This document shows, piece after piece, positions 4,037 through 24,722 of a stretch of DNA of 64,000 nt. How positions within the stretch are numbered: position 1 is the first letter of the stretch; each line of letters opens with the position of its first letter. A program made the position numbers and the translations under genes. Below the pieces are notes generated by a model that did no database searches, was not told the DNA's origin, and was given only the letters and a program-made list of their open reading frames with translations. The stretch comes from Nitrosopumilus sp. (GTDB lineage Archaea; Thermoproteota; Nitrososphaeria; Nitrososphaerales; Nitrosopumilaceae): contig OZ241857.1 of assembly GCA_965203315.1 (NCBI GenBank), positions 352,001 to 416,000 of the forward strand, in the 5' to 3' direction.

Positions 4037-4416
4037 TGTGTAATATCTCGCTCTTGACGTATTACTTGTTCGATATCGGTAATATCCTGAATTCTAGCAA
4101 ATAACGCTATTGTACCTCGATTAAAGTGAGCGCGAAGCATCTTGTTTAGATATAATTGTGGGGAAAGATTTCTGTGCATCAACTCTTGTACCATAAGCGC
4201 CATAAACATTTCTTCATATTCTCCAAATAGTACAAAAGGATGTATCTCTGCACCTTTTTCATCAAACTCATCGGGATTTGGAAGAGATGGATCATTAAGT
4301 GACATACAGATCGCAAATCTGCCTAAAACATTTGGTGTCAAACCTGTACGTTTTTTAAGCTGACCCATTAGATTCTGAGAGCGTGCACTCATTCGTAATC
4401 GATTAAATCGCAACAA
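4033..4416 (-). CDS. dndE: DNA sulfur modification protein DndE
   Basis: FNRLRMS...LKKRTGLTPNVLGRFAICMSL...LFGEY...RAHFNRG; start moved from 4482 to TTG at 4416 (or 4413) overlapping dndD end. Confidence 0.88.
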   Translation of the reverse strand: MLRFNRLRMSARSQNLMGQLKKRTGLTPNVLGRFAICMSLNDPSLPNPDEFDEKGAEIHPFVLFGEYEEMFMALMVQELMHRNLSPQLYLNKMLRAHFNRGTIALFARIQDITDIEQVIRQERDITQ

Positions 4417-6439: not shown

Positions 6440-7929
6440 GTTCCAAACTCCTTGTTATTTTGCTGATACACTTTGAGATCATGTACTATCTCGCCTAGAT
6501 CTTCTCTCCATTCTTCAGATAACACTTTGTTTAATTTTGGATATATCTTGGAGTGTCTGGTCATCCCTTGCGACTCTTGTTCAATATTGAGTAGTTTAGC
6601 AACCAATAGCATCGGAACATTGTTTTTCTTACAGATCTCTTCCAACAAATTTTGTTCAACCATTCCAAATCTTCCTAGATCCTCTTGTGGAGGCACAAGC
6701 CTTTGCTCTGTTATCTTTTCATATATCTGATAAGCCGTATTCTTCCAGTCACCACGTTCAATACGCCATATTCTCTGTATCTCGTGAATTTCTTCTTCTT
6801 GTATTAATTTCAGAGATGGATCAGGCCCTGTCTCTCTAACTTTCATTTGAGCGATCAGTAGTTTTTCAAGAAACTCTTTACAAAAATCTAAAGTATATGG
6901 ACCAGGCACTAAATTAAAATACGGATCAGATTCTTCATCTTTGCCCTGTTCCATTTTTGATTCTCGTATCTTTTCACTAAAAGCCTCTTTACGCTTTTCA
7001 TCGATCAATTTCATTTGACCATTACGTCGCTTTAAGGATCTGACTTGTTTTCTCTTTATTGGATCATGTGTGTCCTTTAACTCTTCTCGTAGCTCTAAAA
7101 GTGGTTCCATCCATTCCTCTCCATTTTCAATAGTATTTCGTAGTGAAGAATCATCATTTACTACTGTACATGTCCAACAACCAAATCTACTATTTCCACA
7201 AGATGGCGTACTGCTGTCAACTACTAGTGGACATTCACTTGCATTTGCGTTCTGATACATAACAAGGAGATCTCTATTGTTTGCTCCCCATGGATTGCTC
7301 TCTTGTAGTAAATAACTCCAAACATCTTTGGCGGTAAAGTCTCGCAAAGGCGTATAAACATATGTCTGAGCAAATTTGGAATGCCTCGATAACAGGCTTC
7401 CCTCTATCTCATATAGATTCATTAGTTGTTGTCTAGATCCACTCTCATCCTTTCTAGTCCCTAGTATTATTATTGCTTCACCATACTCTGATACTTTTTC
7501 TTGAATGAAACGATCAGCGTTTCGTATCTTTAATCGTTCAGTACACCACCTGAATAGATTGCTTGGTGCTGGGAATCCTTTACCCAACAAGCACACCCAA
7601 AAGGTATCTTCGACTACTGGTCTAACTAGATTAGTAGATAATGGGAGGTGAGAGTGTTTAGATGCTTTCTCCATCATGTCTAATGTCTTTGTTATCTGCT
7701 CTACGACCTTTGGTGATTCTACTAGGGTGTCTGATGATATGACGAAGAGATTTTTATGTAGTTTGTTTGAAGGTAGTCTAGACAATGCATTCCATATCAA
7801 CTGAACCATGCAAGTAGAGTCTTTACCACCACTAAACCCTAAAATCCAAGGTCTGTTGTCGCTTTGATATACTGTCTGAATTTCTTTGTAAATATCATTC
7901 AAATGTCTGGCCTTAAAGATCGATTCCAA
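6436..7929 (-). CDS. dndC: DNA phosphorothioation sulfurtransferase DndC (PAPS reductase family)
   Basis: PWILGFSGGKDST, SDTLVESP, FRWCTERLKI, ECPLVVD..TPSCGNSRFGCWTCTVV. Confidence 0.96.
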   Translation of the reverse strand: MESIFKARHLNDIYKEIQTVYQSDNRPWILGFSGGKDSTCMVQLIWNALSRLPSNKLHKNLFVISSDTLVESPKVVEQITKTLDMMEKASKHSHLPLSTNLVRPVVEDTFWVCLLGKGFPAPSNLFRWCTERLKIRNADRFIQEKVSEYGEAIIILGTRKDESGSRQQLMNLYEIEGSLLSRHSKFAQTYVYTPLRDFTAKDVWSYLLQESNPWGANNRDLLVMYQNANASECPLVVDSSTPSCGNSRFGCWTCTVVNDDSSLRNTIENGEEWMEPLLELREELKDTHDPIKRKQVRSLKRRNGQMKLIDEKRKEAFSEKIRESKMEQGKDEESDPYFNLVPGPYTLDFCKEFLEKLLIAQMKVRETGPDPSLKLIQEEEIHEIQRIWRIERGDWKNTAYQIYEKITEQRLVPPQEDLGRFGMVEQNLLEEICKKNNVPMLLVAKLLNIEQESQGMTRHSKIYPKLNKVLSEEWREDLGEIVHDLKVYQQNNKEFGT

Positions 7930-8997
7930 TTACGCATCATCTACTCTAACTGACACTCCTAGATGTTCAAGTATCTTGTTTGCAGCTCTTTTTATTCCTA
8001 GTCTGTGTTTTAGCATTTTGCCATCCATAACGACATTGTCTTGCCAGATTGGACTAGTTTTTCTCCAATCGATCTTTTGCAGTCTTTTTAGTTTTTCTCT
8101 CCAATCTGATCTTTGAGTTAATATGTAACCAACTATTCCTAACGCGTTTAAAATATTTGTATGTGCGTGAACATAGTCTTTACGCAGTTCATATGGGGTT
8201 ATCTTTTTATCAATTAATAAATTCCATTCTGGTATTTTTTTAGACAATACATTCCAATATTCTGCTGCTAGTTTTTGTTTTTCAGGTGATATTGATTTTG
8301 TCTTTAATTTTAGTAAGTGTCTTGTAGCATCGGCAATACCATTCAATGTAAAAAACTTGGTAGAACGATTTGAGATGTTAGTTCTTTCCATCTCCGTTCT
8401 TCCATAAAATATATCAACATCTTGAACTAGAGTTATTACAAACCTTGCAAATGTGTCTCGATGATCGTATAATAATCCAAGTGATTTGGTAGGTTTTACT
8501 GCATGTTTGTTCAGATCTGCAAACATTTGTTGACTACGTTTTAATCCTCGATCTTCAAAGATGACTACTGCGACTCTTTCGTTTTCAAAACTTGAGTCAT
8601 GTCCACATACTTCTCTAATTGCAGCACAACGATGCTGACCATCGTTTACCAATATTTTTGCATTGGTTGGTATGTTGATCGTTCCTATCTTACTTTCAGA
8701 ATCATTTGGAGGAATCGGATTGAATGCTATTCTCTTGTCAATAGATACAGTGATTGCAGAAAATATGTAATCTTTAGGATTTTCGACAATATATGATGCA
8801 ATATTTGGAACTCTAGAACTACGGAGTTTGCGTTGTGCTCTCATCTCTGGGGGTATTGCTGGATCTGCGTCAAATTTGAATTGACTAATAATGGTGCCAA
8901 AATCAAACATAGATACATAAAATTCCCTACCTGCTTGAATCCCCCTATTTGCATAGTATGTTGTTACTCCGTCTTGTTTGTTTGACGTTGTTTTCAT
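7930..8997 (-). CDS. dndB: DNA sulfur modification regulator DndB (DGQHR domain)
   Basis: RGIQAGREFYV, RAQRKL, YIFSAITVS, NDGQHR, QQMFADLNKHA; abuts dndC. Confidence 0.95.
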   Translation of the reverse strand: MKTTSNKQDGVTTYYANRGIQAGREFYVSMFDFGTIISQFKFDADPAIPPEMRAQRKLRSSRVPNIASYIVENPKDYIFSAITVSIDKRIAFNPIPPNDSESKIGTINIPTNAKILVNDGQHRCAAIREVCGHDSSFENERVAVVIFEDRGLKRSQQMFADLNKHAVKPTKSLGLLYDHRDTFARFVITLVQDVDIFYGRTEMERTNISNRSTKFFTLNGIADATRHLLKLKTKSISPEKQKLAAEYWNVLSKKIPEWNLLIDKKITPYELRKDYVHAHTNILNALGIVGYILTQRSDWREKLKRLQKIDWRKTSPIWQDNVVMDGKMLKHRLGIKRAANKILEHLGVSVRVDDA

Positions 8998-9449
8998 GTG
9001 GTTTAGATTTTGGAAGCATTATATAACATTTTGGAAGCACGTTGTAATGTGGGCTGTGAGGCAAAGTCACGTTCAACGAATTTGATAGCAAGTGCCTAAG
9101 ATTGATTCTTAACTTATGTTGAGACTCAATCTCAAACATGTATTTCGGAATCACATGATTGTGGGGAAAAGACCAACATGAACACCTATCCGGTAGCGAT
9201 CATTTTGCTTTTATATTAGTTAGCTCTGAAATGATCGCTTGGTTCGATGGTGTGTTTATACTATTTGATCGATTCGCTTCAACTCATAGTTAACCTCTTG
9301 TTCAGCATATGGTGTTCTTACAATTCATTGATTGCTACTCGGCGCATGTTTGTTGATAGACGCTTTGTATGTAAACATATTTTTCACACAATTCAGAGGA
9401 TCTATTTTCATTCCTAAAACATAAATATTAATTTCCACGTACTAACAAT

Positions 9450-9620
9450 ATGTATATTACTCAGAAAGAAAAAGATCGGCTAGAAAGAGTATCAGAGTAT
9501 TCAAACGCCAATTACGTTAGTCCATACCTAAAAATTCATGATATAAGAAGATATATAGATGGGAGCGTTTGGATCGATTGTCAACGATTATCTATGCCAA
9601 TAAGGAGAATTATAAGGTAA
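9450..9620 (+). CDS. Small hypothetical protein (56 aa, below ORF-track cutoff)
   Basis: ATG 9450 to TAA 9620 read by eye (MYITQKEKDRLERVSEYSNANYVSPYLKIHDIRRYIDGSVWIDCQRLSMPIRRIIR); TATA-like ATAAATA at 9421; 6 bp before next ORF. Confidence 0.4.
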   Translation: MYITQKEKDRLERVSEYSNANYVSPYLKIHDIRRYIDGSVWIDCQRLSMPIRRIIR

Positions 9621-9626
9621 CTGAAC

Positions 9627-9821
9627 ATGAAAAGTTATAATTGCACTGGTTGTGGAGGATCATTCAGTTATACATATGAGGTGGGTAGTAAAATTTTTTG
9701 TCAAAAATGTTGTAATGAGCAACTATCACTGGGCATAAAACCTACAACCAATATTGTGAAATCAATAGTCATGTCATTTAAAAAATGTCGACTTGTTGCA
9801 CACCACAGTCAAGATCATTAA
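9627..9821 (+). CDS. Small zinc-ribbon protein
   Basis: 64 aa with CTGC...CQKC; upstream of SNF2 gene on same strand. Confidence 0.5.
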   Translation: MKSYNCTGCGGSFSYTYEVGSKIFCQKCCNEQLSLGIKPTTNIVKSIVMSFKKCRLVAHHSQDH

Positions 9822-9885
9822 TGTATGGAAAGTATTTAAGAATCACTTGACGATCCAATACCTTACGAAATGACGGTATCACAAA

Positions 9886-11637
9886 ATGGAACAAATTAAT
9901 AACATAGATATCAGATTTCCAGACCCATATGGAATAAAGAATGCATTACGCAACTGTAATGTACAAAATCCAGAATTTTTAGACATTACATTAAAATCAT
10001 ACAAAATACTCTCAAGATTCAAAAATAAAAAATTACACATAAAAGAATTTCTTGATGCGAATGAGAATGTCAGTATATTTGATCATCAAATACTTGCAGC
10101 ACAAAAAATAAAAAACAGTTTTGGAGGAACTGCTCTGCTTGCCGATGAAGTAGGACTTGGAAAAACTGTGGAGGCAGGAATAATAATCAAAGAATTTATC
10201 ACTACGGATCTTGCAAAAAAGATATTAATTCTTGCACCACCATCACTTTTACCGCAGTGGCAAGATGAACTCCGAAACAAATTTGACCTTGATTTTATAA
10301 ACCAAAAAGGAGACCCTCGATTTCATAATGCCATGTCACATGACCTACTTATAATGTCTCATTCATCTGCTACATATCCAAAACATGCCAACTTACTAAA
10401 TTATGCTTACTGGGATTTGGTCGTAGTTGATGAAGCACACAGTATGAAAAATCCTGACACATTCAAGCACAAACTTGTCAAAAATCTTCCAAAACGTAAC
10501 CTGCTACTACTTACGGCAACCCCCATACAAAATAATCTAAAAGAACTTTACAACCTAATTGAACTCTTACGTCCAGGATATCTCGGCACATGGAAGCAAT
10601 TTAGAGAAAAATACTCTAGTGATCCTCAGTTCAGAATGATCAATTCTGAATATAGGAATGAATTACAGAATATTTTGTCTACGGTGGTTATTAGAACCAC
10701 CCGAAATGAAGTGAGAGAGTATATAAAAATGGCAGACAGAATTCCATCTACCAGAATACTTGAACCCACAGATGACGAAAAAAGACTTTATGATGAAATT
10801 ACTAGAATCATACAAGGTCAATACGTGACAAACGGAGACGCTTTTTCACTTATGATATATCAGAGGCTCGCATCTAGCAGTACTAGAGCATCAAAAAGAG
10901 TATTGTACAAGCTAAAAACAAATGGGGTAATTTCTTCAGAGCTGTATCAAAAGATAATGTCCGTGGCAGACAATATCCAGATCGATTCAAAGTTTTTGGC
11001 ACTGCTTGACATGGTACAAAAAAACACATCAAAGTTCCTCATATTTACCGAATTTCATGTGACGCAAGACTACATTCGAGACAATTTGGAACAAAACGGG
11101 TTCTCTGTTACTCTATTTAATGGAAAGATGAGTTATGGTGATCGACTTGAATCTGTGCAAAAATTCAAAGGCGATACACAAATAATGATATCTACTGCAG
11201 CAGGAGGCGAGGGACAAAACCTTCAATTCTGCCACAACATTGTAAATTATGATCTTCCATGGAATCCTATGCGGATAGAACAGCGAATAGGTAGAGTACA
11301 CAGAATAGGCCAAAAAAACGACGTGTACATATACAATTTTGCATTAAAAGGCACGATCGAGTCATATATTTTAGATCTTCTCTATGTCAAAATCAACCTG
11401 TTTCAGATGACTCTTGGAGATATGGACATTATGTTTGAGGATTCATGGGCAGGAGGTTCCCCACAAACGTGGTTTAAGGAATATATGAATGCATCAAGCG
11501 AAGAGGAAAGAATGAATAAATTTTCCTCAATAGGGAATGATTGGAAGGACCGTACAGCGACTGTAAACAATGCTATACATAGTTTTAATGTGAACGTGTT
11601 CAAGAATTTTGATCTATCTTCTAGGAGTGATAAATAA
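9886..11637 (+). CDS. SNF2-family helicase/ATPase (YqhH-like)
   Basis: LLADEVGLGKT, VVDEAH, LLTATPIQN, GGEGQNLQ, NYDLPWNPMRIEQRIGRVHRIGQ. Confidence 0.92.
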   Translation: MEQINNIDIRFPDPYGIKNALRNCNVQNPEFLDITLKSYKILSRFKNKKLHIKEFLDANENVSIFDHQILAAQKIKNSFGGTALLADEVGLGKTVEAGIIIKEFITTDLAKKILILAPPSLLPQWQDELRNKFDLDFINQKGDPRFHNAMSHDLLIMSHSSATYPKHANLLNYAYWDLVVVDEAHSMKNPDTFKHKLVKNLPKRNLLLLTATPIQNNLKELYNLIELLRPGYLGTWKQFREKYSSDPQFRMINSEYRNELQNILSTVVIRTTRNEVREYIKMADRIPSTRILEPTDDEKRLYDEITRIIQGQYVTNGDAFSLMIYQRLASSSTRASKRVLYKLKTNGVISSELYQKIMSVADNIQIDSKFLALLDMVQKNTSKFLIFTEFHVTQDYIRDNLEQNGFSVTLFNGKMSYGDRLESVQKFKGDTQIMISTAAGGEGQNLQFCHNIVNYDLPWNPMRIEQRIGRVHRIGQKNDVYIYNFALKGTIESYILDLLYVKINLFQMTLGDMDIMFEDSWAGGSPQTWFKEYMNASSEEERMNKFSSIGNDWKDRTATVNNAIHSFNVNVFKNFDLSSRSDK

Positions 11638-11638
11638 A

Positions 11639-12427
11639 ATGGATCAGAATGAGGACATAAGGGACTATGTACTAGAATTTTTTACAATAATTGGCTCCGA
11701 TATATCTAAAGTTGATAATTCAGTATATCACGTATCTGTGCCAGATCAGTACGTAATTTTTTTCAATAAACCGAAACTTGTGTTCACATTTGATGATAAT
11801 ATTGCTGCAAAATATGGGTGTGATCTGGTAAATGTGGGAAGTAATATACTATCTACAATCATTAGAATTTGTAGCACTATGGGCCCCATATCAATAAAAA
11901 AATCGAAAAGAGTGAGCAATGGACATATCGTGATTCGCTGTTATTTTTTTGTAAATTTTTTATCAATTAATAATTGGTCAGAAATATTATTCATAGATAT
12001 TGATTGGAATACGTTAAAACCTGTGACAATAAACACTTCTCTTGAAGATGGTAATTTTTCTTTGGATATGATAAAAAATGATCCAAAAAAAATCACAGCA
12101 GTATATGCATCTGCACTAAATGAGATCAAAACAAAATGTATTGATTTTAAATTGAAGTTTTTAGATGATGTCAATACTTTATTTCAGAACGATTTTAAGT
12201 TGCTAGTTGAAAAATATGACACGCAAATACGCGAGTTAGATACAGCAATTAATGATAAGGCAAAAACTTTGGATAATGCAACAAAATCCAGTGAATTTAG
12301 ATTTGATACTGTGAAAAAAATTGAGTCTATAGAAAAAGAGAAATCCATGGTAGCAGAGACACTACAAAGAAAATATCGTGTCACGTTAGAGTACAAGCTT
12401 GTTGCATGCGAAATAATCTTAAACTGA
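11639..12427 (+). CDS. SNF2 partner protein (YqhG-like, C-terminal coiled coil)
   Basis: ATG 1 bp after helicase stop; IRDYVLEFF...LVFTFD...LVNVGSNIL and C-terminal coiled coil ending KYRVTLEYKLV, as I recall for YqhG-like partners. Confidence 0.55.
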   Translation: MDQNEDIRDYVLEFFTIIGSDISKVDNSVYHVSVPDQYVIFFNKPKLVFTFDDNIAAKYGCDLVNVGSNILSTIIRICSTMGPISIKKSKRVSNGHIVIRCYFFVNFLSINNWSEILFIDIDWNTLKPVTINTSLEDGNFSLDMIKNDPKKITAVYASALNEIKTKCIDFKLKFLDDVNTLFQNDFKLLVEKYDTQIRELDTAINDKAKTLDNATKSSEFRFDTVKKIESIEKEKSMVAETLQRKYRVTLEYKLVACEIILN

Positions 12428-12588
12428 TTGCATGTTTGCCTGATAGTGGAATCTAAGTTCTAAACCATCATCAGCTGACTAACAACAAGATTGAAAACTG
12501 TTTAAGATTATCAAGGATCGTAACACTACAAAAGCGTAGAGTAGCCCAAGTACACAATGAGCATCTATGTTCTTTGCACTGTGTAGAG

Positions 12589-12703
12589 GGATCTTTTTGA
12601 TTTACATGGGGTAGAATTTTTACAGAAAAAGTACCAAGATCTCATGGGGGTGTTTACAGAAAAAGTCTTGTAAACTTTTATCCAACATAAATCTAAAAGA
12701 TCC
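12589..12703. mobile_element. MITE family B (~115 bp, GGATC...GATCC ends)
   Basis: TIR GGATCTTTTTGATTTA / TAAATCTAAAAGATCC; internal TTACAGAAAAA shared with other copies. Confidence 0.8.
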
Positions 12704-12855
12704 ATAGAGTGCGTGAGTAGTAAAACAGACACCTGCGATCAAGACGATCAACGGTGCGATCAGGAAAACAATACAAAATTCTAACATTGGCTTTGTGTGG
12801 GGTTTGATAGCCACTGAGGGCATCGTATATCCAATCATCAAACCTTTTTATTGAT

Positions 12856-13725
12856 ATGGGCGGAGTGAAATACATGGAAGAGAAGTTTGAGTATATTCCT
12901 TTGGAAAAAATTCAAGTTCAAAAACATAACGTCCGCATACATGACATAGACCAAGGAATCGAAGAGCTGGCTCAGAGCATAAAGTCACTTGGATTATTAC
13001 AGCCAATTGCAGCATATTTTAACTCTAAAACAAGTGAGTATGTGATTCTTACTGGGCAACGAAGACTTAATGCATACCATTTGCTTAACAAAGAATATCC
13101 TGGAGAAGTATACGATAAAATTCAATGTAAAATAATACCTGAGCCAGAATCTGATGATAAAAAGAAAGCTCTATCCCTCGCTGAGAATATTACGCAAAAC
13201 CAAATGACTAATAGCGATCTCATAAAAGCAGTTACAGATCTGTGGAACATATATGGAGATTATGAAATGGTTAAAGAAGAATTCGGAATTACTAAAAAAC
13301 AAGTTGACACATATGTCAGACTAGCAAGATTACCAGATGAAGTAAAAACAGCCATTCAAAATGGTGAGATACACCCCAACCCCAAAACTGCAGAAAGGAT
13401 TTCTTTGAAGGCTGTTGATGCGTTAGACTTTACTGTAAATGGCGAAACTCCAGTGAGGGACGTCATTGAATTAGCAAAAGAAATGGGTAAAAAGGAAAAC
13501 AATCCTGCAGACCTTGCAGATGAGGCAAAACGTGGAGGCACTAGTCAGGAAATAGTAAAAAGAGCCCGAGAGAAGAAGAAAATAAAACATCAAATTAATT
13601 TAACTCTAGAACATGCAGACAAACTTGAGCGCATATCTGAGTCAAATGGCGAAACTCCAGAGTCGAGAGCAACTCAATATGTTATAGATGGTGTAGACAA
13701 GGACTATAATGAGCTAGGTGATTAA
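12856..13725 (+). CDS. ParB/Srx-like NTPase-domain protein with HTH
   Basis: IEELAQSIKSLGLLQPI...YVILTGQRRLNA (GxRR), SLAENI; HTH region ITKKQVDTYVRLARLPDEV; no parA adjacent; start may be 12874. Confidence 0.85.
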   Translation: MGGVKYMEEKFEYIPLEKIQVQKHNVRIHDIDQGIEELAQSIKSLGLLQPIAAYFNSKTSEYVILTGQRRLNAYHLLNKEYPGEVYDKIQCKIIPEPESDDKKKALSLAENITQNQMTNSDLIKAVTDLWNIYGDYEMVKEEFGITKKQVDTYVRLARLPDEVKTAIQNGEIHPNPKTAERISLKAVDALDFTVNGETPVRDVIELAKEMGKKENNPADLADEAKRGGTSQEIVKRAREKKKIKHQINLTLEHADKLERISESNGETPESRATQYVIDGVDKDYNELGD

Positions 13726-14512
13726 ACTGAGCAAATTTGTGTTGGATACACAGGAATATGCCAAGTTACTAAATAGTGTAGGGCAACAAGGTGCAAAAAC
13801 TAGTAAAAGGCGCCCATTAACTCCAATACAATGCGCAGAATATATACAAAAACTTGTTGAAGCAGAACCGGAAAGCAAGGATAAAATTGCAAAGAGACTG
13901 AGTCTTGGCAAGCCCAAAAACGTGACAAATATGTACAAAAAGCGCGATACATCTCAGATCCAGATGTTTTTAAATTTACTAAAACTTTCTTCCAAAAGCA
14001 GGCAACATGCAGGGTGGCAATATGATGGATATCCTTACATTCCATTTAGCACCATGGCACAACTTGCAACAATGAAAAACCTGACCTCTCAGGAACAAGA
14101 CATGATAATTCAATCAATACATAATTCAAAAAATAAAAAACGCGTGTTAGGAAAGGAAGATATTAAAAAGATAAAAAAATGGCGTAATGAAAACCCTGAT
14201 TTGTCGATTGAGGAATGCATTAAAACAGTATTTGATCTCAAGCCAGTAACAACAGTTAACCATATAATCATAATAGAAATACACAATAGCCTTCAAGAAT
14301 TTATAAATTCCCACGATGATTATGGGGAAAAAATACTATATATGTTAAGAAATAACCTTCCGGGTGAATTTTATGACATAACTGCAGGAGAATCTGCAAT
14401 GTCAATATCTATGAATGAAGATGCATATAAAATATTCCATGAACATCAATACATGAAAAAAATATCATACACAAAATTTTTCAACAAATTTTTGGAGAAT
14501 AAAATTGAATGA
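13718..14512 (+). CDS. ParB-HTH-like protein lacking the NTPase domain
   Basis: RRPLTPIQCAEYIQKLVE...IAKRLSLGK...SQIQMFLNLLKL resembles the ParB/KorB HTH; overlaps both neighbours by 8 bp. Confidence 0.55.
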   Translation: MIKLSKFVLDTQEYAKLLNSVGQQGAKTSKRRPLTPIQCAEYIQKLVEAEPESKDKIAKRLSLGKPKNVTNMYKKRDTSQIQMFLNLLKLSSKSRQHAGWQYDGYPYIPFSTMAQLATMKNLTSQEQDMIIQSIHNSKNKKRVLGKEDIKKIKKWRNENPDLSIEECIKTVFDLKPVTTVNHIIIIEIHNSLQEFINSHDDYGEKILYMLRNNLPGEFYDITAGESAMSISMNEDAYKIFHEHQYMKKISYTKFFNKFLENKIE

Positions 14513-15554
14513 CACAGTAGACATTATTTGCAATCAAAATCAATTCAGGAATTGCCCCATAAAGCTTGACGGCATAACGTGCGACGGGTATGATGAAAAC
14601 ACCAAGATAGGTGTTTTTTCACACTTTCATCATAATCATATAGAAAGTATGCCGATATGTATTTCAACATACGATACGCTGATAACACACAAGCTGACTT
14701 TTGAAGGGATAAATGCACTGCAACCAGGGATGAGATTGAGAGAACAGTGGGTAACTCTGGATTATGATACTGCATATGTTTTTGCTGAGGGAACAATAAG
14801 ACTACTGAAAGCAAATCACATTCCTGGTTCATCACAGGTCTATGTAGAATCCAATGGAAAATCATTACTATATTCGGGTGACTTTAGTTATCCTGATGTG
14901 CAGATCAGACAGGCAGATTACTTGGTAATAGATTCCACACATGGAGATCCTTGGATGGATAGTAACACTGACAGGAAATCAGTACAAAATCGTATGTTTG
15001 AATATATTAAAGAAAATATTGAATTGTATAAACAAATAGTTATCCAAGTTCCTACTGGGACTCTACAGGAAATAGTCAAACACCTTGAAATTGGATATGG
15101 GAGAAAGATGCCTGATGACATCTATTTCGTCATGGATAAAAAACAAGAAAATATTTTGCACAGTATTTATGAAAGTGTTAAAAAAGAGTTTAGAAAAATT
15201 GTGGAATATCAATCGTCAGAGTTCTGGAACAACGTAAGAAACAACAAAAAATGTTTAATTTTTACCACACAATTAAATATATTGGACGAAGAGTTACGCG
15301 AATTTCATAAGATTATTATTGATAGGTATAGATTAACAAAAGAACAGCCCACTATAATTCCTATCAATCATGGATGTAGATTTAACTTGGCAGCACATGC
15401 ATCAATAAATGGCATATATGAATACATTGCATCGGTTAATCCAAAATACGTTATAACTGATAATTCTCGAAGCGGTTATGCCAAACAGCTTGCCAAACTA
15501 ATTGAACAGAAATTTCCACACATCAAGACTGATTACAAGCCTCATTTAGATTAA
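14505..15554 (+). CDS. Metallo-beta-lactamase / beta-CASP nuclease (SNM1/Artemis-like)
   Basis: SHFHHNH, ANHIPGS, LYSGDF, LVIDSTHG, LAAHAS motifs. Confidence 0.82.
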   Translation: MNDTVDIICNQNQFRNCPIKLDGITCDGYDENTKIGVFSHFHHNHIESMPICISTYDTLITHKLTFEGINALQPGMRLREQWVTLDYDTAYVFAEGTIRLLKANHIPGSSQVYVESNGKSLLYSGDFSYPDVQIRQADYLVIDSTHGDPWMDSNTDRKSVQNRMFEYIKENIELYKQIVIQVPTGTLQEIVKHLEIGYGRKMPDDIYFVMDKKQENILHSIYESVKKEFRKIVEYQSSEFWNNVRNNKKCLIFTTQLNILDEELREFHKIIIDRYRLTKEQPTIIPINHGCRFNLAAHASINGIYEYIASVNPKYVITDNSRSGYAKQLAKLIEQKFPHIKTDYKPHLD

Positions 15555-15558
15555 CTCA

Positions 15559-17658
15559 CTATTTGGAGCATTGATCGTCATACCATCTTCTAAGATCTTT
15601 GTATTCTGAAGGCAGTTCGTATGGTAGTGGGGCTATTCTGCATCCTTCTCTGCTAGGATGATATGGTTCGCCTCTTTTGTATAGTCTGTACATGCCTAGA
15701 CTTGTACGATATAATTTTCTGTGAGATTTAGATGATCCTGGAATATTGGCTACACAAACCCAAGATATGTTGTAGTATAATGTCTTAAGAGAAGCACTGC
15801 ATAATTTTTGCTCGCTTATCTGCCATATTATCTCTTTATTTGTAAATACGCGACTCATTCCATCTTTCTGTTGTAATGTCGCAACAGCTATCCAAACAGC
15901 TGTGGCAATACGCAACTTACCACCCTCTATCCGATCGCTATTCTTCACCTTTTTGTCTTTTTTAGCTAGTGATTCTATATTTTTGACTCGGTTTGCAATC
16001 AATCGTGCCAAGTTCACTATCTTATCTTGATTGTTCTCTTCACCCTCCCATTCGTAATAATCTGTTGCAAAAAGTGCTATGTGTAATCCTAGCTGAGGAT
16101 CTGAATGAAGTCCACTCTCATTAAGTTTCCTTAACTCGTCAGGAAGTCGCCACGGCGTTCTCACGTGCAGCAAGATATCTTTCTTTGAGATTTTAGGGTG
16201 GTTATGTACTATTTCGTGCAAGGATTTCACATTGATGAATTCTAGAGTGAGAGTTCGTTGTAGCGGTTTTTTTATATTTTTCTTGTTTGTTTTATATGAT
16301 TCTAGTACTTGTTGCACTATGTTATTTAAATCGTCTGTCGTGAGTAGTGATTTGCTCTGTTTCACTGTTACGTGACCACGTGTCTGAGAATTTGATTCGG
16401 GGACATCATCTTTTAATTTGGTCGGGCTTGCTGGATAATTAAACTCGAATAGGTAATCTAAGAACACATCTTGGTGTTTTATTTCTTTTATGGAAATACT
16501 GTCTATTCTTTTTAGCCTATCTTTAAGTCGAATCCTATCCTTTTTGGGTATCTCAAGTTGAGAACAAAGATCGGAAAAACACACTCCATCGGTACTTGTC
16601 TTTATGATGTGTAGTGCCTTAGAGGTTAGACTATCAAGGGCATCTGTGGGTTGAGATGGTTCGGATTCACGTATATCTAGTTTATCGAGATTACGCAAAA
16701 ACACCCTGTCGATTCTAGATGGATTTTGTTGTAATATGTCTAAACCGAATTTTGATATGTAAAACACTTTTGGTCTCTTCTCCAACAATCCGGAGCGTGT
16801 CATATACGTCTTGGCCCAACTAATCCTTGTAGAAAAGTAATTTCCTCGAGATGGTTTTTCTAACTCAAGATTCTGTTTAGATATCTTAAAGTATGATGCC
16901 AAATATTCTTTTACTTCGGAGGCTCTTCTTTCACGCTCATCTGCCAGAAATTTCAGTATGGGCAACATAATGTCTTCAAATGTTGGAAGTGGAACAGCTT
17001 TTGTAGTGTTTCTGTACCACGGATCATATCCCAATCTATACAAGAAATGCTCCCACGACTTAAATTCTAACTCGTATTGTTTTGTATCGAATCTAGAGTT
17101 CTTATCCATATCTTGTTTTGTGGGTGTGTGTCCAAGCAGATGTTGGATCCTCTCAAACTCCATAATCATTGACACCTTGTTTGGTTCTTTTGAGCATGCA
17201 AGATCTATTATCTGATTTATGTCTGCACCAAACTCTCTTTCTAAGTCAACTACGGACAATGTATTTGGAAGAAATTCATCGATATTTTTATCGTGGTTAT
17301 CAGGTCCTCTTGCCACGATTGCTATTCCAAGGTCCCTTAACATAGATGCACGTCGTTTGTTAAAATAAGAGAGATTTATTCCATCATTATTGGGGTTTTT
17401 TGTCTCGCTGTTTCTTAATTTTTCCTTATATTTCAAATTTCTGGGCTTTTGTCTTATTCTATAATTACAACAGTTACAAAACCACCCCAAAGAATCTGAA
17501 TCTGCTGGTGTTCCGTCCTTAAGATGTGCTCCCTTGTGGCTTATCCATATGTCACATATTTGACACCGTCCCTGCCCAGAACTATACCTGCCTTTTCCTG
17601 TGGGTTTTTTTACACCGTACCTTTTACATATTCCGTTACATATTCTCTTTGGATCCAT
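15559..17658 (-). CDS. Mosaic DNA-binding protein: Cys-rich Zn finger, homing-endonuclease-associated repeat, Mrr_N, wHTH, ParB-HTH-like, C-terminal conserved domain
   Basis: CNGIC...RCQIC...CNCCNYRIRQKPRN; LGHTPT...YELEFKSW; LPTFEDIMLPILKFLAD...RISWAKTYM..SGLL (Mrr_N); no Mrr catalytic motif seen. Confidence 0.7.
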   Translation of the reverse strand: MDPKRICNGICKRYGVKKPTGKGRYSSGQGRCQICDIWISHKGAHLKDGTPADSDSLGWFCNCCNYRIRQKPRNLKYKEKLRNSETKNPNNDGINLSYFNKRRASMLRDLGIAIVARGPDNHDKNIDEFLPNTLSVVDLEREFGADINQIIDLACSKEPNKVSMIMEFERIQHLLGHTPTKQDMDKNSRFDTKQYELEFKSWEHFLYRLGYDPWYRNTTKAVPLPTFEDIMLPILKFLADERERRASEVKEYLASYFKISKQNLELEKPSRGNYFSTRISWAKTYMTRSGLLEKRPKVFYISKFGLDILQQNPSRIDRVFLRNLDKLDIRESEPSQPTDALDSLTSKALHIIKTSTDGVCFSDLCSQLEIPKKDRIRLKDRLKRIDSISIKEIKHQDVFLDYLFEFNYPASPTKLKDDVPESNSQTRGHVTVKQSKSLLTTDDLNNIVQQVLESYKTNKKNIKKPLQRTLTLEFINVKSLHEIVHNHPKISKKDILLHVRTPWRLPDELRKLNESGLHSDPQLGLHIALFATDYYEWEGEENNQDKIVNLARLIANRVKNIESLAKKDKKVKNSDRIEGGKLRIATAVWIAVATLQQKDGMSRVFTNKEIIWQISEQKLCSASLKTLYYNISWVCVANIPGSSKSHRKLYRTSLGMYRLYKRGEPYHPSREGCRIAPLPYELPSEYKDLRRWYDDQCSK

Positions 17659-17920
17659 ACACTATTGCCAATCGTCATTCCAATAAATCTATATACATCA
17701 ACTGACACTAGTCTGCATACGTATTTCTAAATGGGCCTCTGCACAACATCACGCAACTATCAACGTAGGCCTTGTCATACATCTCGTGTATATGGAACAG
17801 TCCTCACCACATCTTGGTTCATAAACATGTCCTGACAACCGTCTCACTGTGTTGAGCATGATATCACATGCAATTCACATCGAACAGTACATAAACGAGC
17901 ACTAGTTTTGTACATATGTC

Positions 17921-20900
17921 CTAGTCTTTTGTGTCATTCCCACTCGGAACATCCACATCTTCTAATGTGGGAATTTTTGTACTGTCACTAAACCTTCCAA
18001 CAATATCGATCTGCTCTGTAGTAGAGTCTCCGCCAAAGAGCGTTGCATGTGCCATGACAGAATACGTGCCCGTCTGATTTATTGGAATATAGATGACAGT
18101 GGACGTCTCATCTTTATTCTTGATTGGATAGAATCCTCCACCTTCACTAAACGATGATACTCCCAACCAATCAAGCGATGGCCAATCATTCAATTCACCA
18201 AAGACACCTGATGGAACGTTGGTCTGGACGATTCTTCCTACAGGGTCCATAACAAATAGCGCAAGACTGGTATCTTTATTGTACCACGATACCTCTAGAA
18301 CAGCCGAGTCAGTAGAGTTGTCTTGAATATCAAAGTAGAACTGTCTCCAGTCTCCTGCCATATATCTACTCGTCATGTCAAAGGCACCCTTGATGTATCC
18401 TGTACCATACAACACATCACTGCTGTTTGTACCATGTACAACAATCACATCATTGCTGTGTGTTACGGGCTCTTTTACAACAAACGATACGGGTGAATTT
18501 ACCGTATGATGGTCACCAACAAATGTCAAGAATCCTTGATAGACTCCTGTACTGTACACATTTGGTACAACCAGAGTTATATCTACAGTCTCGGTGGATC
18601 GTGGAGGTATCTCTATACTCTGACTGGATGTCCATACCAGTGGCCACCTCTCTTTGGCGTAATAACTAGCAGATAGCGTATAGTTCATCGCAGTTGCATT
18701 ATGCTTTGTATCGCCAACCCAGTACGAGTACTTTACAGGTACAGGATATATCCCTACTAGCGGAACTCCCTCAAATTGTTCAGTTGGCATGTTGACTCGC
18801 AACTCTTGTACAGTCCCCCACGAGCCACCCCTGTTCACCATGACTAGTTCGTCACTATCGATATCTGTATCATCATCGCCGTCGATCCAGTCATATACGT
18901 ACAGAGATGATATCTGGAGATCATCTGCATATGTGGTTGTATCGTTCAGAAACGTATCAAAGTCAAAGTTCACGTTCAGTACCATCAGTGTAGCGGTATC
19001 GGGGATATATCTCTCGTCAAACAACTCTTTGAGTGACGTATGGCTGTGTACATCTGCCAATCTGACATAGTTTGGTACCAGTATACTCGACTTGTTATGT
19101 ACAGGATCTTGTTCTCTCGGTACAGTAACTCCGGTAAACGTCTCTTGACCAACTAGAGATAATCTCTGTGGTATGATATCAACTCTGATCGTATCGTTTG
19201 ATGGATTATGTATGGTATACGTTGTAGTGCTGCGTTCTCCTGCCATCAACTGACCTGCAAACCAACTCGCCATCTGCATAGATTTGTCTGGCAACTTGAA
19301 TCTATCGAGACCAATCGTACTCGAGTTTACATTTTCCATAGCAGGTGACAAGACCTGTAATACATTATGGAATGATCCATCATTGTATGCTGAGAATGTA
19401 CCGTCTGTACCATTGATGTATCGAACAGCTGCATACACATCAACCAGCCCTGCCCCTTGTGTAAATGGATCATTATACAGATCATCTGCACTAGACATCA
19501 AGATACGTTTCAACACAAACGGATCATAGTCAAAGCCATTCTCTCTACTGGCTTCGATCAATACCGCAGCTGCGCCAGCAATCATCGGTGCAGCCATGCT
19601 AGTTCCACCGTATAACCTAAAAGGCTCCACAGTAGAGTCTTTCTTGGACAACACACTCGATGGTGTAAACGAGTATGCTCCAGTACCCATGATATCGGGC
19701 TTTGGATCACCTATTATACTAGGACCGCGACTAGAAAAGTCTACTATATGATTCTGATGTATCGTCTTGTTTCCAAATCTTGGCTGATCCTTGAATGGAC
19801 CATACCCTACAAATACATTATTTGTGGTCGCACCCACAGATACACTAAACGGTGATCCTCCAGGAAGACTGATCGTTCCATAACCATGTCCTGCATTACC
19901 TGCACTGGTTATCATCAGTACGCCACCATAGTCGTCGTGTAACGATTGAGGTACAGTCAGCACTCCAATTATCAACGATAGTATGTCCATTCCAGGTGCT
20001 CTCTCTAGTCCTGGAAAAGTGGACACCCCCCAACTGTTCGATATGATATCTGCGCGTGAATTACCTGTAAACTTCCATGTACCGTTGGTATTATCAAAAC
20101 CAGCTGCCCACAACCAGCCATACACGACATCACCGAACCATAGTGCCTTTATTGGAACTATCTTGGCGTCTGGTGCTACACCAGTTATGGTATACTCGCG
20201 AGTATCGTTGTACACATGATATATAGATACGCCCCTAGACGTTATCGTTGCAGCGCTAGACGTACCGTGTCCATCAAAGTCTGTCATCACTCCAAAGAAA
20301 TCGCCGTTGGGATCTAGTGCGGGTAACAGTGTTCCGTTTACTGCGCCTAGATGATCGTCTATGTGAGACTCGTCATCATGTATCGCACCATAAATATCCA
20401 AGACTCGTGCTCCAACCGTACCTGCTGTATAGTCATCTCGTCCATCACGATTCGAGTCGTACACTAGAAACTCGTTTCCACTTCCTAAAACTATTGGTCT
20501 CTCGTCTGTAAAGTCAAAGTCATAGTTTGGCCTCTTGCCATCTTTGAGATCAAACCTCGTAAAGTCCTTCCAAGATGTAGACATGTCCGGAATTATCGTG
20601 TCATATATGCCAGCCTTGAACGAGTCTACAACTAGAATCGGCACAACTTGAATTCGAGCCAGTGGTCCATCTAGCGAACCCTGATACATCACGCCCAGCT
20701 TGTATATGCCGCTTGCAGATTTGATATAGTTGTGTCTATCTCGTCCTATCTTCATATCTTTGTCTAGTGTACCGTTAAACACTATAGAGTTGCCTCCAGC
20801 TGGAAAGAAAGAGTTGTAGATGGATATTACAGTTCCCTTGTTGTTCTTGTTTATGTCTAGAAAGACTCCTCGGTCAGATACATACACAGACGATGTCATG

Positions 20901-21511
20901 TTCTCGGGTATCTCGTCTACATTTTGTATTATTCCATGTTCATCTATATTAGCATAAAACGTAGCATTTGTTATTATTATTCCCTGTCCATCAGGATCGA
21001 GCATTATAGGGTGATTGTTCTTATCACGTGCAAGAGAGTGACGTATATCTGGATTTGAAAAGTCAACTCCTGTATCAACTATTGCGACTGTGGCGCCCTT
21101 GCCTGTAAAGCCATACTGTTCATGTACAATATCTGCTTGGACTGTCTTGGCTATACGTGACGCGTCGTCCGCATGAAAATCTAGTTTGTAGTCTTCGATT
21201 ACCGTATATCCTAGAGCAGCTAGTCTTGCAGCACTCGTCTCTGATATCACAGATACAGCAAAGAATCCATTATCTGTGGTTATCATGTGTGAGTTTGGAA
21301 CATCCATATATCCAGAACCAAATATCAGATATCTCTTGTACTCTTGATCTGTGTACTCGATATCGATTATCTCAGAGTACTGTATTTGTGGTTGTACACT
21401 CTGACGAGGAATATCTGAATAGAGTGTGTCAGAGTATTGTGCATCAGAGTATTGTACTATAGTAAATGCCACCAGTCCCAAGACTGCAACAATTGCGAAC
21501 ACTCTGTGCAA
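17921..21511 (-). CDS. Secreted S8 (subtilisin-like) serine peptidase
   Basis: Signal peptide; AIVDTGVD, DGHGTSSA, SAGNAG, FSSRGP, GGTSMAAP catalytic motifs. Confidence 0.93.
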   Translation of the reverse strand: MHRVFAIVAVLGLVAFTIVQYSDAQYSDTLYSDIPRQSVQPQIQYSEIIDIEYTDQEYKRYLIFGSGYMDVPNSHMITTDNGFFAVSVISETSAARLAALGYTVIEDYKLDFHADDASRIAKTVQADIVHEQYGFTGKGATVAIVDTGVDFSNPDIRHSLARDKNNHPIMLDPDGQGIIITNATFYANIDEHGIIQNVDEIPENMTSSVYVSDRGVFLDINKNNKGTVISIYNSFFPAGGNSIVFNGTLDKDMKIGRDRHNYIKSASGIYKLGVMYQGSLDGPLARIQVVPILVVDSFKAGIYDTIIPDMSTSWKDFTRFDLKDGKRPNYDFDFTDERPIVLGSGNEFLVYDSNRDGRDDYTAGTVGARVLDIYGAIHDDESHIDDHLGAVNGTLLPALDPNGDFFGVMTDFDGHGTSSAATITSRGVSIYHVYNDTREYTITGVAPDAKIVPIKALWFGDVVYGWLWAAGFDNTNGTWKFTGNSRADIISNSWGVSTFPGLERAPGMDILSLIIGVLTVPQSLHDDYGGVLMITSAGNAGHGYGTISLPGGSPFSVSVGATTNNVFVGYGPFKDQPRFGNKTIHQNHIVDFSSRGPSIIGDPKPDIMGTGAYSFTPSSVLSKKDSTVEPFRLYGGTSMAAPMIAGAAAVLIEASRENGFDYDPFVLKRILMSSADDLYNDPFTQGAGLVDVYAAVRYINGTDGTFSAYNDGSFHNVLQVLSPAMENVNSSTIGLDRFKLPDKSMQMASWFAGQLMAGERSTTTYTIHNPSNDTIRVDIIPQRLSLVGQETFTGVTVPREQDPVHNKSSILVPNYVRLADVHSHTSLKELFDERYIPDTATLMVLNVNFDFDTFLNDTTTYADDLQISSLYVYDWIDGDDDTDIDSDELVMVNRGGSWGTVQELRVNMPTEQFEGVPLVGIYPVPVKYSYWVGDTKHNATAMNYTLSASYYAKERWPLVWTSSQSIEIPPRSTETVDITLVVPNVYSTGVYQGFLTFVGDHHTVNSPVSFVVKEPVTHSNDVIVVHGTNSSDVLYGTGYIKGAFDMTSRYMAGDWRQFYFDIQDNSTDSAVLEVSWYNKDTSLALFVMDPVGRIVQTNVPSGVFGELNDWPSLDWLGVSSFSEGGGFYPIKNKDETSTVIYIPINQTGTYSVMAHATLFGGDSTTEQIDIVGRFSDSTKIPTLEDVDVPSGNDTKD

Positions 21512-23619: not shown

Positions 23620-24234
23620 GTGGCAATAGAGAGCAAGATGTTAGAGATCAGTGAGATCGAAGAGTATATCATCTTGTTGGTACATGTAGACGATCAACAC
23701 ATGCGAGGTAGACAGAAACTCCAATTTTTGATCTACATGTTGGGAGATCCCTATCCAGAGATCAGAGAGTTGTGTGATTTTACAATAAAAGATAATGGAC
23801 CACACAGTACAGTAATAGATAACTCTCTCGATCATCTTGTACAGTTGAGTCTGCTAGTAGAGGGTGATGGTGCTATACAATTGACAGAAAAGTGTGCCGA
23901 ATATACTAAAGATATTGTAGCTAAAAAAAACAAGATTCTAAAGTTTCCAGGACTAGTTAATATAACGATGCCAGATGTATTTATTGAACACAAGAGTATC
24001 ATAAACGATATTTCCATTCCAGAGATGCTCTCTTTTATGTACTGCGAGTACCCTTACATGCAAAAGGGTTCCATAACGTACAAGAAACTCAAACCATACA
24101 TTAAAGATCATTTATTTTCTTTATTTGCAAAAGAAAAGTTGAGTCTTGCACGGGTTGGAGGACTCATTGGCATACCAATACACTTAATGATGAAAGAGGC
24201 GGGTAACCGAGGCTTACTCCGATTAGAGCTTTGA
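23620..24234 (+). CDS. Antitoxin copy 1: Panacea/DUF4065-like wHTH fused to UPF0175-like C-terminus
   Basis: GRQKLQFLIY...F....GPHS; YCEYP; C-term KEKLSLARVGGLIG; 204 aa, overlaps PIN gene start. Confidence 0.75.
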   Translation: MAIESKMLEISEIEEYIILLVHVDDQHMRGRQKLQFLIYMLGDPYPEIRELCDFTIKDNGPHSTVIDNSLDHLVQLSLLVEGDGAIQLTEKCAEYTKDIVAKKNKILKFPGLVNITMPDVFIEHKSIINDISIPEMLSFMYCEYPYMQKGSITYKKLKPYIKDHLFSLFAKEKLSLARVGGLIGIPIHLMMKEAGNRGLLRLEL

Positions 24235-24722
24235 AGATATTCGATACGTCTCCCTTGGTTGGAATATTCAATGAATCTAAAAGACCAGATATGTTTGATG
24301 ATCTTTTACAATTGGGACACAAATTAACAACTACAAAATATGTGTTATCGGAGATAAAGGATCCTAATACTTGTACAAATGTTAAAAGATTAATGCGGGA
24401 ACATAAACTTGAATGCTTAGAAAAAAACTCGCTAGAAGAGATTGAAAATTTTAAACGAATTTATAAAAAATTAGAAAAAGGTGAGATAGATGTACTTCTA
24501 ACTTACATAAAACTAAGCCAACACATCACCCGCATTTACTGTATTTTAGATGACGGAAATGCGCGAAAAGTAGCATCAAAATTAGACCTCCAATATACTG
24601 GTCTGATAGGACTGCTAAGGCTACTAAATAATCGTGGAATTAAGAGCCTTGATGAGATCAACAAGATTCTCAAACTACTAAAAGAAGGTGGTTTCAGGAT
24701 GCCAAAACACATTGATATCTAG
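24231..24722 (+). CDS. PIN-domain toxin copy 1 (DUF3368/VapC-like), intact
   Basis: IFDTSPL, GEIDVL, ILDDGNARK, TGLIGLL, GFRMP; TTGA overlap with antitoxin stop. Confidence 0.85.
   Translation: MKIFDTSPLVGIFNESKRPDMFDDLLQLGHKLTTTKYVLSEIKDPNTCTNVKRLMREHKLECLEKNSLEEIENFKRIYKKLEKGEIDVLLTYIKLSQHITRIYCILDDGNARKVASKLDLQYTGLIGLLRLLNNRGIKSLDEINKILKLLKEGGFRMPKHIDI

Follow-up and report, generated by a model that had tools for sequence, protein, structure and literature searches.

A conserved triad of a ParB/Noc-type protein, an NTPase-less ParB paralogue and a beta-CASP nuclease beside DNA phosphorothioation genes in Nitrosopumilaceae: a candidate restriction partner

Gene organisation

The window analysed here, a stretch of 64,000 nucleotides from a Nitrosopumilus genome (contig OZ241857.1, positions 352,001 to 416,000 of the forward strand), contains three tightly coupled genes, which we call the triad (Table 1). 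Gene 1 encodes a ParB/Noc-type protein, gene 2 a ParB paralogue with the DNA-binding domain only, and gene 3 a small beta-CASP nuclease of the metallo-beta-lactamase (MBL) fold. The initial annotation had singled out these genes as a candidate undescribed defence system. It noted 8-bp overlaps at both junctions, an intact GxRR motif without a ParA partner for gene 1, a ParB-type helix-turn-helix (HTH) without the nucleoside triphosphatase (NTPase) domain in gene 2 and an altered HxHxDH motif, HFHHNH, in gene 3. It further suggested a nucleotide-gated heteromeric DNA clamp that licenses a nuclease, and that the triad could be the missing effector of the adjacent Dnd phosphorothioation writer or a stand-alone system.

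Both overlaps are confirmed when stops and starts are read directly. The ParB gene ends with a TAA stop at 13723-13725 and gene 2 begins with GTG at 13718; gene 2 ends with a TGA stop at 14510-14512 and gene 3 begins with TTG at 14505. The overlaps at 13718-13725 and 14505-14512 are therefore both 8 nt, of the same length but with different letters, and they depend on choosing the start of the longest open reading frame (ORF). One database prediction of gene 2 starts at a later GTG, seven codons on, and yields a protein of 257 aa; the homologues of gene 2 have the common N-terminus MIKLSK or MIELSK, which is encoded from 13718. Intergenic gaps do not exceed 16 nt throughout 29 related triads, and the 8-nt overlap of gene 2 and gene 3 is found in 12 of these 29.

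Domain assignment of the three proteins

Gene 1 consists of an N-terminal domain predicted to bind nucleoside triphosphate (NTP), namely cytidine triphosphate (CTP), an HTH DNA-binding domain and ~110 uncharacterised C-terminal residues. It passes both curated ParB thresholds, with 37.4 bits against a cut-off of 26.3 for Pfam ParB_N (PF02195, E 2.6e-09) and 62.4 bits against a cut-off of 58.45 for TIGR00180 (E 4.4e-17). Built from 16 homologues, the gene 1 profile finds Noc, Spo0J, ParB and KorB structures in the PDB over residues 3-171, with Noc 7ol9 (4.6e-23) as the best match. The GxRR and EN(xxR) motifs of ParB proteins are involved in CTP binding and hydrolysis. Residues G67, R69, R70 and E110 are invariant in the gene 1 family and N111 is nearly so. 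The GxRR motif is indeed intact and reads GQRR; of 26 triad-linked ParBs, 25 share it and the remaining one is a truncated ORF. The third motif reads ENITQ in the window and lacks the Arg that is present in many relatives. An Atlas search with residues 176-289 found unnamed clusters only, at a best score of 0.88. A partition locus would combine ParB with ParA and a parS-type site. In agreement with the initial annotation, no ParA-type family matched any of the 21 window ORFs scanned (10-30481); no search for a loading site was made. The constant neighbours of gene 1 are gene 2 and the nuclease. The same genome holds two more ParB-like ORFs (L002, G000:C1:54516-55244; L003, G000:C1:469866-470660) with 27% identity to gene 1, one of which has an in-frame TGA.

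For gene 2, no family match was obtained in Pfam, NCBIfam or PADLOC. Its 40 homologues at 46-63% identity are all without a name, and its family amounts to 458 representative clusters at E<=1e-3 in a library of 1.84 billion proteins, clusters that carry no taxonomy. The AlphaFold model has a predicted local distance difference test score (pLDDT) of 84 and a predicted template modelling score (pTM) of 0.70. The top Foldseek matches of this model are all ParB, Noc, Spo0J or KorB, with weak E values starting from 8e-3. In VIA superpositions, residues 1-159 align with the DNA-binding domain of Noc, Spo0J, ParB and KorB at Z 8.1-10.3, and the root-mean-square deviation (rmsd) is 2.4-3.3 A over 99-121 residues; for 6y93_B, Z is 10.3 and the rmsd 2.6 A for 116/116 residues. 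Another twelve entries of ParB, Spo0J, Noc and KorB reach Z 7.4-9.4. The aligned residues of the ParB chains are ~100-250 and thus begin after the NTPase domain. The model therefore supports what had been proposed from the HTH, namely that gene 2 has the ParB DNA-binding domain and lacks the NTPase domain.

The C-terminal residues 180-264 of gene 2 are modelled as a beta-alpha-alpha-beta-beta-alpha-alpha domain with only unspecific matches (Z 4-5). On the level of sequence, the gene 2 profile found only HipB-type HTH among PDB sequences (E 0.18), and hhalign of gene 2 against ParB alignments gave a probability of 2.4%, which is not significant. Ribbon-helix-helix-like C-termini of ParB and gene 2, read as a pattern, were dropped after hhalign and the Atlas search gave no support. 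A prediction of the complex of ParB with gene 2, made without controls (score 0.00, mark 0.32), counts neither for nor against binding. Gene 2 found no match in the phage collection, nor did a distant relative of it in the plasmid collection.

A profile of gene 3 built from 11 homologues matches only beta-CASP nucleases in the PDB, in line with the initial annotation. The matches include archaeal CPSF-like PH1404 (2.7e-13), Cas14 (4.5e-12) and SNM1A (1.5e-09), and further CPSF73, FttA, IntS11, Apollo, Artemis and RNase J. Invariant in the family are D27, H40, H42, H45, H105, D126 and H298, the last being the motif B His, so that the family holds MBL motifs 1-4 (D; HxHxDH; H; D). The PH1404 alignment also covers an ESTYG-like stretch and the S-x-H-A motif of the CASP domain. 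Pfam Lactamase_B_2 scores 19.2 bits, below its threshold of 27. A His in motif C is typical of the RNA-processing beta-CASP members. At this position (PH1404 'vHGE') the gene 3 family is variable, with N, Y, S, C, M, F, G, A and others, flanked by the near-invariant D319 and R322. The variability leans towards a DNA-acting, SNM1/Artemis-like kind of enzyme. Gene 3 was also considered as the Cas14 of type VII CRISPR and rejected, with 37 bits for NCBIfam NF045584 against a cut-off of 800. The DrmC model gave E 0.0059 with no passing stretch, and the plasmid collection held two weak partial matches to the nuclease.

Motif 2 of gene 3 in the window reads H40-F-H-H-N44-H45, with Asn44 at the Asp position. 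The HFHHNH reading holds for this copy; it does not hold for the family, in which Asp is found in 33 of 35 aligned rows, corresponding to 29 of 31 distinct loci. L053, the second locus without Asp, has further degenerate motifs. Judged by this alignment, the change from D to N is a peculiarity of this genome and not a family trait. A contig from a second study (run X4), possibly of the same strain, spans the Asn44 codon with 0 differences, and an assembly error is therefore unlikely. Since the substitution affects a metal-binding Asp, the window copy of the nuclease may be weakened or impaired.

Conservation of the triad

We searched 401 Nitrosopumilaceae genomes with the gene 2 profile, fetched 20 kb around each match and scored the ORFs with profiles of the cassette genes and with the dnd proteins of the window themselves. 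The profile matched 31 places in 27 of the genomes. At 24 of the 31 places, the window included, the triad is complete, with ParB, gene 2 and the beta-CASP gene adjacent on one strand. The triad is a conserved unit, and joint conservation of its genes, on which the initial proposal depended, is borne out.

The SNF2 helicase gene and the following 272-aa gene, which precede the triad in the window, are found upstream in only 9 of the 24 complete triads and are thus accessory. The same nine loci have an Mrr_N-type neighbour, recognised in L026 solely by a weak C-terminal match. The remaining 15 triads are of a short form that often directly continues dndA on the same strand. We conclude that the triad is the core and that the window represents the long form. 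In related loci of sufficient length, from genomes and metagenomes, the gene order remains SNF2, 272-aa gene, ParB, gene 2, nuclease, and dnd genes adjoin the cassette in L009, L010, L012, L013, L016 and L023. Extra genes can stand between dndA and the SNF2 gene: a shorter second ParB-like gene of 258 aa (L023:5717-6493) and a GmrSD-type enzyme (L010:4682-6409; GmrSD_N 2.6e-35, GmrSD_C 5.2e-12).

In a phylum sample of 401 genomes, the gene 2 profile matched outside the family only genome G141 and, marginally, G388 (2.2e-4). G141 belongs to another family and holds a distant triad with 20-31% identity. This triad abuts a fusion of ParB_N with a DNA methylase. The fusion protein at this locus (L028:11706-15762) has 595 aa and an N6/N4 methylase part, and the locus also encodes a second, larger beta-CASP protein of 455 aa with Lactamase_B_2 and RMMBL.

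Linkage to DNA phosphorothioation genes

In the window, the writer cluster consists of dndB (3.4e-114), dndC (TIGR03183, 2.9e-154), dndD (TIGR03185, 1.8e-142), dndE (2.1e-20) and dndA, the product of which matches the IscS/DndA-type cysteine desulfurases. The suggested linkage of the triad to Dnd extends far beyond this locus: at 21 of the 24 complete triads, dnd genes are found no more than 10 kb away. Two of these 21 have incomplete surroundings, L045, where only dndA is seen at a contig end, and L033 with a partial dnd cluster. Often the triad comes immediately after dndA and shares its strand, as in L026, L044, L048 and L056. The linkage also extends to an Ssp-type cluster, as the triad of L042 lies between sspA-SspB-SspC and SspD (PADLOC 2.2e-89, 2.9e-296 and 8.4e-108). 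In total, 22 of the 24 complete triads in the family are located beside or inside a phosphorothioation cluster.

The L042 triad is the second of genome G647; at this locus (L042:2317-13323) the order is cysteine desulfurase, SspB, SspC, triad, 341-aa gene, SspD, and the triad is inserted on the opposite strand. SspD is followed by an MzaB-like HATPase and a PbeA-like helicase. Genome G643 (C1:1651000-1684100; L037, L056) holds two dndBCDEA clusters ~16 kb apart, each with its own triad, one of the long form with the SNF2 pair and the other of the short form.

On the level of genomes, DndC scores above its cut-off in 24 of the 27 gene-2-positive genomes and in 38 of the 374 others. The genomes are related and the counts not independent, so that this co-occurrence is a description and not a test.

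A PbeABCD-like cassette lies on the minus strand 1.2-7.4 kb left of the window start (L073:8624-14758; G000:C1:344623-350757). It encodes PbeA (687 aa, PADLOC 3.8e-188), a 121-aa protein, PbeC (701 aa, 2.2e-77) and a 151-aa protein at the position of PbeD. The insertion of an IS630-type DDE_3 transposase gene (337 aa) separates pbeA from the other cassette genes, and an HNH endonuclease gene (285 aa) stands beside pbeA. From its gene content, a known kind of Dnd partner is present in this genome, if perhaps damaged. PbeA and PbeC are found near the triad in just 1 of 48 loci (L009-L056), and the triad thus does not depend on Pbe.

The long form in the window

By gene order, the unit in this genome extends beyond the triad to the SNF2 helicase, a protein like the RapA C-terminal domain and, in convergent orientation, an Mrr_N protein. 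The best PADLOC models for the SNF2 gene are BrxHI|BrxHII (1.6e-75) and DrmD (6e-74). The 272-aa protein encoded next to it has no family match in Pfam, NCBIfam or PADLOC. Its model has a pLDDT of 87, with residues 1-11 below 50. Foldseek matches the model to E. coli RapA (6bog, E 6.2e-10), and VIA aligns 224-235 residues with RapA ~700-965 at Z 9.2-10.2 and a large rmsd of 12-14 A. Homologues begin at the residue aligned with M11, and the true start is likely the ATG at 11639. From the model, the SNF2 gene and the 272-aa gene look like one split RapA/DrmD-like enzyme.

A dispersed repeat resembling a miniature inverted-repeat transposable element (MITE) is inserted between these accessory genes and the triad and contains an internal 14-nt direct repeat. 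It has 40 more matches in the same genome at 71-88% identity, on contigs C1, C5 and C6, and recurs as extra contig pieces in the second-study comparison. The gap upstream of ParB, enlarged by this repeat, measures 428 bp in the window and 23-228 bp in relatives.

The 699-aa protein consists of a Zn-ribbon-like N-terminus, HNH_repeat, an Mrr_N winged helix and a conserved C-terminal half, and it matches PADLOC mREase_IV at 2.1e-11. Its homologues are located downstream of the triad in long-form loci and in none of the short-form loci, co-varying with the SNF2 pair. They occur in L012, L016, L019, L023, L029-L031, L033, L037, L039 and L040 with lengths of 372-1043 aa. The Zn-ribbon-like N-terminus and the C-terminal half are conserved in this family, and two homologues contain DUF7669. 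Residues ~470-577 of the 699-aa protein are weakly similar to the ParB HTH region (E 6.2e-4).

Table 1. Features of the triad and its surroundings, in window coordinates
Feature	Position	Strand	Basis or remark
dndA-dndE-dndD-dndC-dndB, DNA phosphorothioation writer cluster	2885-8997	-	Pfam/NCBIfam; divergent from cassette
SNF2-family helicase, 583 aa	9886-11637	+	SNF2-rel_dom 1.1e-37, Helicase_C 4.2e-23
RapA C-terminal-like protein, 272 aa	11609-12427	+	structure model
MITE-like dispersed repeat, ~115 bp	12589-12703		imperfect terminal inverted repeats (I1), direct repeat (D18)
Gene 1, ParB/Noc-type, 289 aa	12856-13725	+	ORF
Gene 2, ParB paralogue, DNA-binding domain only, 264 aa	13718-14512	+	ORF
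Gene 3, small beta-CASP MBL-fold nuclease, 349 aa	14505-15554	+	ORF
AAT codon of Asn44, Asp position of HxHxDH in gene 3	14634-14636	+	read directly
Mrr_N protein, 699 aa	15559-17658	-	Mrr_N 4.3e-17, HNH_repeat 4.3e-07; convergent with gene 3

Comparison with known systems

PADLOC holds no model for any of the three triad proteins, and a full-text literature search found no description of the triad; supplementary neighbourhood tables (e.g. PMC10853773 Dataset S1) were outside its reach and might list it. Within PADLOC and the literature searched, the triad is undescribed, as the initial annotation had supposed. The accessible parts of the thaumarchaeal dnd literature mention the writer genes only (PMC7848895, PMC6790972).

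Gene 1 has in common with the CTP-dependent clamps ParB, Noc and KorB the HTH domain and an N-terminal nucleotide-binding domain that carries the GxRR and EN motifs; gene 2 shares the fold of their DNA-binding domain. In contrast to these clamps, the two ParB-like genes are tied to a nuclease gene and to genes of DNA modification, and there is no ParA, SMC or membrane partner. Their canonical C-terminal dimerisation domain is not recognised in the triad proteins.

By analogy, the closest logic would be that of SspE or Menshen, in which the sensor belongs to the DUF262 clade. DUF262 is described as the ParB-superfamily sensor of SspE, GmrSD and Menshen (PMC12065111), and SspE as an NTPase that is stimulated by phosphorothioated DNA and nicks DNA with its C-terminal domain (PMC9646914). 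Like the triad, SspE and GmrSD couple a ParB-superfamily NTPase domain to a DNA nuclease and are linked to a phosphorothioation writer. SspE, however, is a single polypeptide in which the DUF262 clade (DGQQR) is fused to a DUF1524/HNH nickase, whereas the triad has a classical ParB/Noc-clade NTPase (GQRR, HTH), a separate beta-CASP protein and, as a third component, the NTPase-less ParB paralogue. No triad protein matches PF03235 (GmrSD_N) or PF07510 (GmrSD_C). Menshen (NsnABC) likewise comprises three genes, with a ParB-superfamily protein as proposed sensor that has a ParB-type DNA-binding domain, and a nuclease effector (PMC12065111). Its own parts are ParB-DUF262, an ABC-ATPase transducer, and inactive-PIN plus mostly RNase effectors; the accessible part of its account contains no beta-CASP protein, no NTPase-less ParB paralogue and no dnd linkage, and the terms 'lactamase' and 'MBL' occur 0 times (PMC12065111).

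PbeABCD and DndFGH, the known restriction partners of Dnd that depend on phosphorothioate, resemble the triad as multi-gene cassettes that adjoin dnd clusters. PbeABCD is composed of the PLD-helicase PbeA, the SMC-like PbeC and the small proteins PbeB and PbeD; neither it nor DndFGH has a ParB/Noc-type protein or a beta-CASP nuclease, and the triad proteins do not match the Pbe models. Searches with TIGR03236 and TIGR03238 (dnd_assoc_1, dnd_assoc_3), which we take to stand for DndFGH components, found nothing in this genome and likewise nothing in 14 control genomes. To our knowledge, DndFGH has not been reported in marine ammonia-oxidising archaea. In the literature, PbeABCD is an archaeal Dnd partner shown to work (PMC6459918), and DndFGH, a set of kinase, winged-HTH (wHTH) and restriction endonuclease (REase)-HerA proteins, is found in only 806 of 3416 taxa that have an endonuclease beside modification genes (PMC10853773). 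The Dnd-linked nucleases named in the accessible part of Rakesh et al. are HKD, HNH, REase, URI, HEPN and PIN, without MBL or beta-CASP (PMC10853773).

Taken together, the SNF2 gene and the 272-aa gene resemble the DISARM and BREX helicases DrmD and BrxHII and E. coli RapA. Unlike in RapA and DrmD, the enzyme is split into two genes here. No DrmA, DrmB, DrmC, DrmM or Brx core genes were found with the cassette; the one DISARM component matched is DrmD, by the SNF2 gene.

Interpretation

Because the triad is found nearly always beside dnd or ssp genes, it is probably a new restriction partner of phosphorothioation in marine ammonia-oxidising archaea. We assign a probability of roughly 0.6 to the reading that it acts as a restriction or defence effector together with the neighbouring writer, DndBCDEA here and SspABCD in one relative. 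Besides the linkage, the constraint on the GQRR motif of the ParBs and on HxHxDH of the nuclease argues for this role, as does the setting in a defence island with AbiE, PIN and Mrr_N proteins, GmrSD and PbeA/PbeC. The logic of SspE and Menshen provides a precedent by analogy.

In such a system, the ParB/Noc-type protein would serve as an NTP-dependent switch on DNA. The NTPase-less paralogue would be its partner and contribute a second ParB-type DNA-binding domain. Depending on whether the DNA bears the phosphorothioate marks of the host, the pair would allow the beta-CASP nuclease to attack foreign DNA that lacks them, by nicking or degradation. The long form would add the split RapA/DrmD-like SNF2 translocase and the Mrr_N protein, probably for translocation or for reading of the target. 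The domain identities, the conserved order and coupling of the genes and the linkage to dnd and ssp are observed; contacts between the proteins, the gating by NTP, the kind of DNA that is cut and any protection against viruses we infer. The more specific version, in which the CTP switch and the paralogue themselves read the marks, load on or slide along DNA and license the nuclease only where marks are missing, is possible, and we put it forward tentatively.

Several observations weigh against a restriction partner of Dnd. At seven of the 31 places the triad is incomplete or decayed (L027, L035, L036, L041, L043, L050, L055). Three of the 24 complete triads have no dnd genes within 10 kb, namely L042, which is placed in an ssp cluster, L038 and L052. 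Among 62 DndC-positive genomes 38 lack gene 2, so that Dnd does not need the triad. The window copy of the nuclease carries Asn in place of the catalytic Asp, and the repeat element divides the window cassette into two parts. Beta-CASP enzymes also serve RNA processing and DNA repair, and a restriction role thus does not follow from the fold. Finally, a PbeA/PbeC cassette is already located near dnd in this genome. The idea of a missing effector of the adjacent writer stands as far as the linkage to Dnd is concerned, and fails in its premise that this Dnd has no known partner.

The role of SNM1A, Apollo and Artemis, which the nuclease profile matches, is in repair, and the triad might accordingly be a repair or maintenance module. 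The ParB pair would mark or clamp damaged or modified sites and an exonuclease would process breaks or lesions at phosphorothioate links, with no attack on foreign DNA. A weak match to the NCBIfam family 'ligase-associated DNA damage response exonuclease' (3.9e-08, far under the cut-off) points in the same direction, and linkage to dnd and ssp fits repair as well as it fits restriction. We nevertheless consider repair decidedly unlikely: the surrounding genes are defence and not repair genes, the triad has a patchy, island-like occurrence in which copies are duplicated or decayed, one triad stands beside a methylase and not a phosphorothioation system, and the SNF2 partner scores best against the defence helicases BrxH and DrmD. 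The dependence on phosphorothioate would disappear altogether if the module merely travelled with dnd islands and acted in abortive infection or addiction, with a toxic nuclease held in check by two ParB-like binders. L038 and L052 would fit this idea, since these complete triads show no modification gene within 10 kb among the selected flanking ORFs scanned, and so would the movement of the module among dnd, ssp and methylase contexts. Menshen provides a stand-alone precedent of a ParB-superfamily sensor with an effector nuclease (PMC12065111). Passive co-travel, however, explains poorly that 22 of 24 triads are beside or inside a phosphorothioation cluster and that many extend the dnd operon directly, on its strand and across small gaps; in addition, each of the two dnd clusters of G643 has its own triad. 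Such a module is unlikely.

The similarity of gene 1 to the chromosomal ParB/Noc class, its nearest relatives, raises the question of a partition or regulatory set of a mobile element, in which ParB would act in segregation or repression, like KorB or DndB, and the nuclease in replication or excision. Thaumarchaeal integrative elements do encode ParB-like proteins (PMC6563490), and the genome holds the two other ParB-like ORFs. This origin is highly improbable given the lack of a ParA-type gene in the scanned ORFs; those beside the triad likewise included no integrase, conjugation or replication gene. Its constant partners are the paralogue and the nuclease rather than partition genes, and the plasmid and phage collections gave no match apart from the two weak partial ones to the nuclease. 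A different concern is limited to this genome, where the window copy could be decaying or disabled and its function taken over by other systems of the island. Asn44, at an Asp kept in nearly all loci and confirmed by the second-study contig, and the MITE-like insertion with the enlarged gap upstream of ParB are compatible with this, and real decay is seen at L027, L035, L043, L050 and L053. On the other hand, all five ORFs are intact and of full length, every other invariant residue is kept, and metal binding could survive one conservative substitution. As a backup, the nearby Pbe cassette is not obviously better, since it is broken up by a transposase gene. Loss of function in the window is a doubtful but serious possibility.

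If the more specific version holds and the ParB pair reads the marks, the triad would represent a new mechanistic class of modification-dependent restriction and the main effector partner of Dnd, and sometimes of Ssp, in marine ammonia-oxidising archaea. Many dnd clusters are without the known restriction partners, and as a restriction partner the triad would fill part of this gap in abundant archaea of the ocean. It would also take the CTP-switch ParB fold beyond chromosome segregation and into immunity, offer a tractable three-protein system for how backbone sulfur is read, and supply new models for defence-system finders.

Further genes of the island

No Rfam family matched window positions 8500-18000 at E<=0.1. 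A second Mrr_N protein, of 788 aa, is encoded at 10-2376. To the right of the cassette, a 1196-aa subtilase (17921-21511, minus strand) matches Peptidase_S8 at 1.3e-34 and, weakly, the PADLOC subtilase and IetS models; its GC content is ~0.44, compared with ~0.35 in the cassette. The island continues with a PIN-domain gene (24231-24722), an AbiEii toxin/AbiEi antitoxin pair (25127-26697, minus strand) and two UPF0175-like genes (27503-28117 and 29849-30481).

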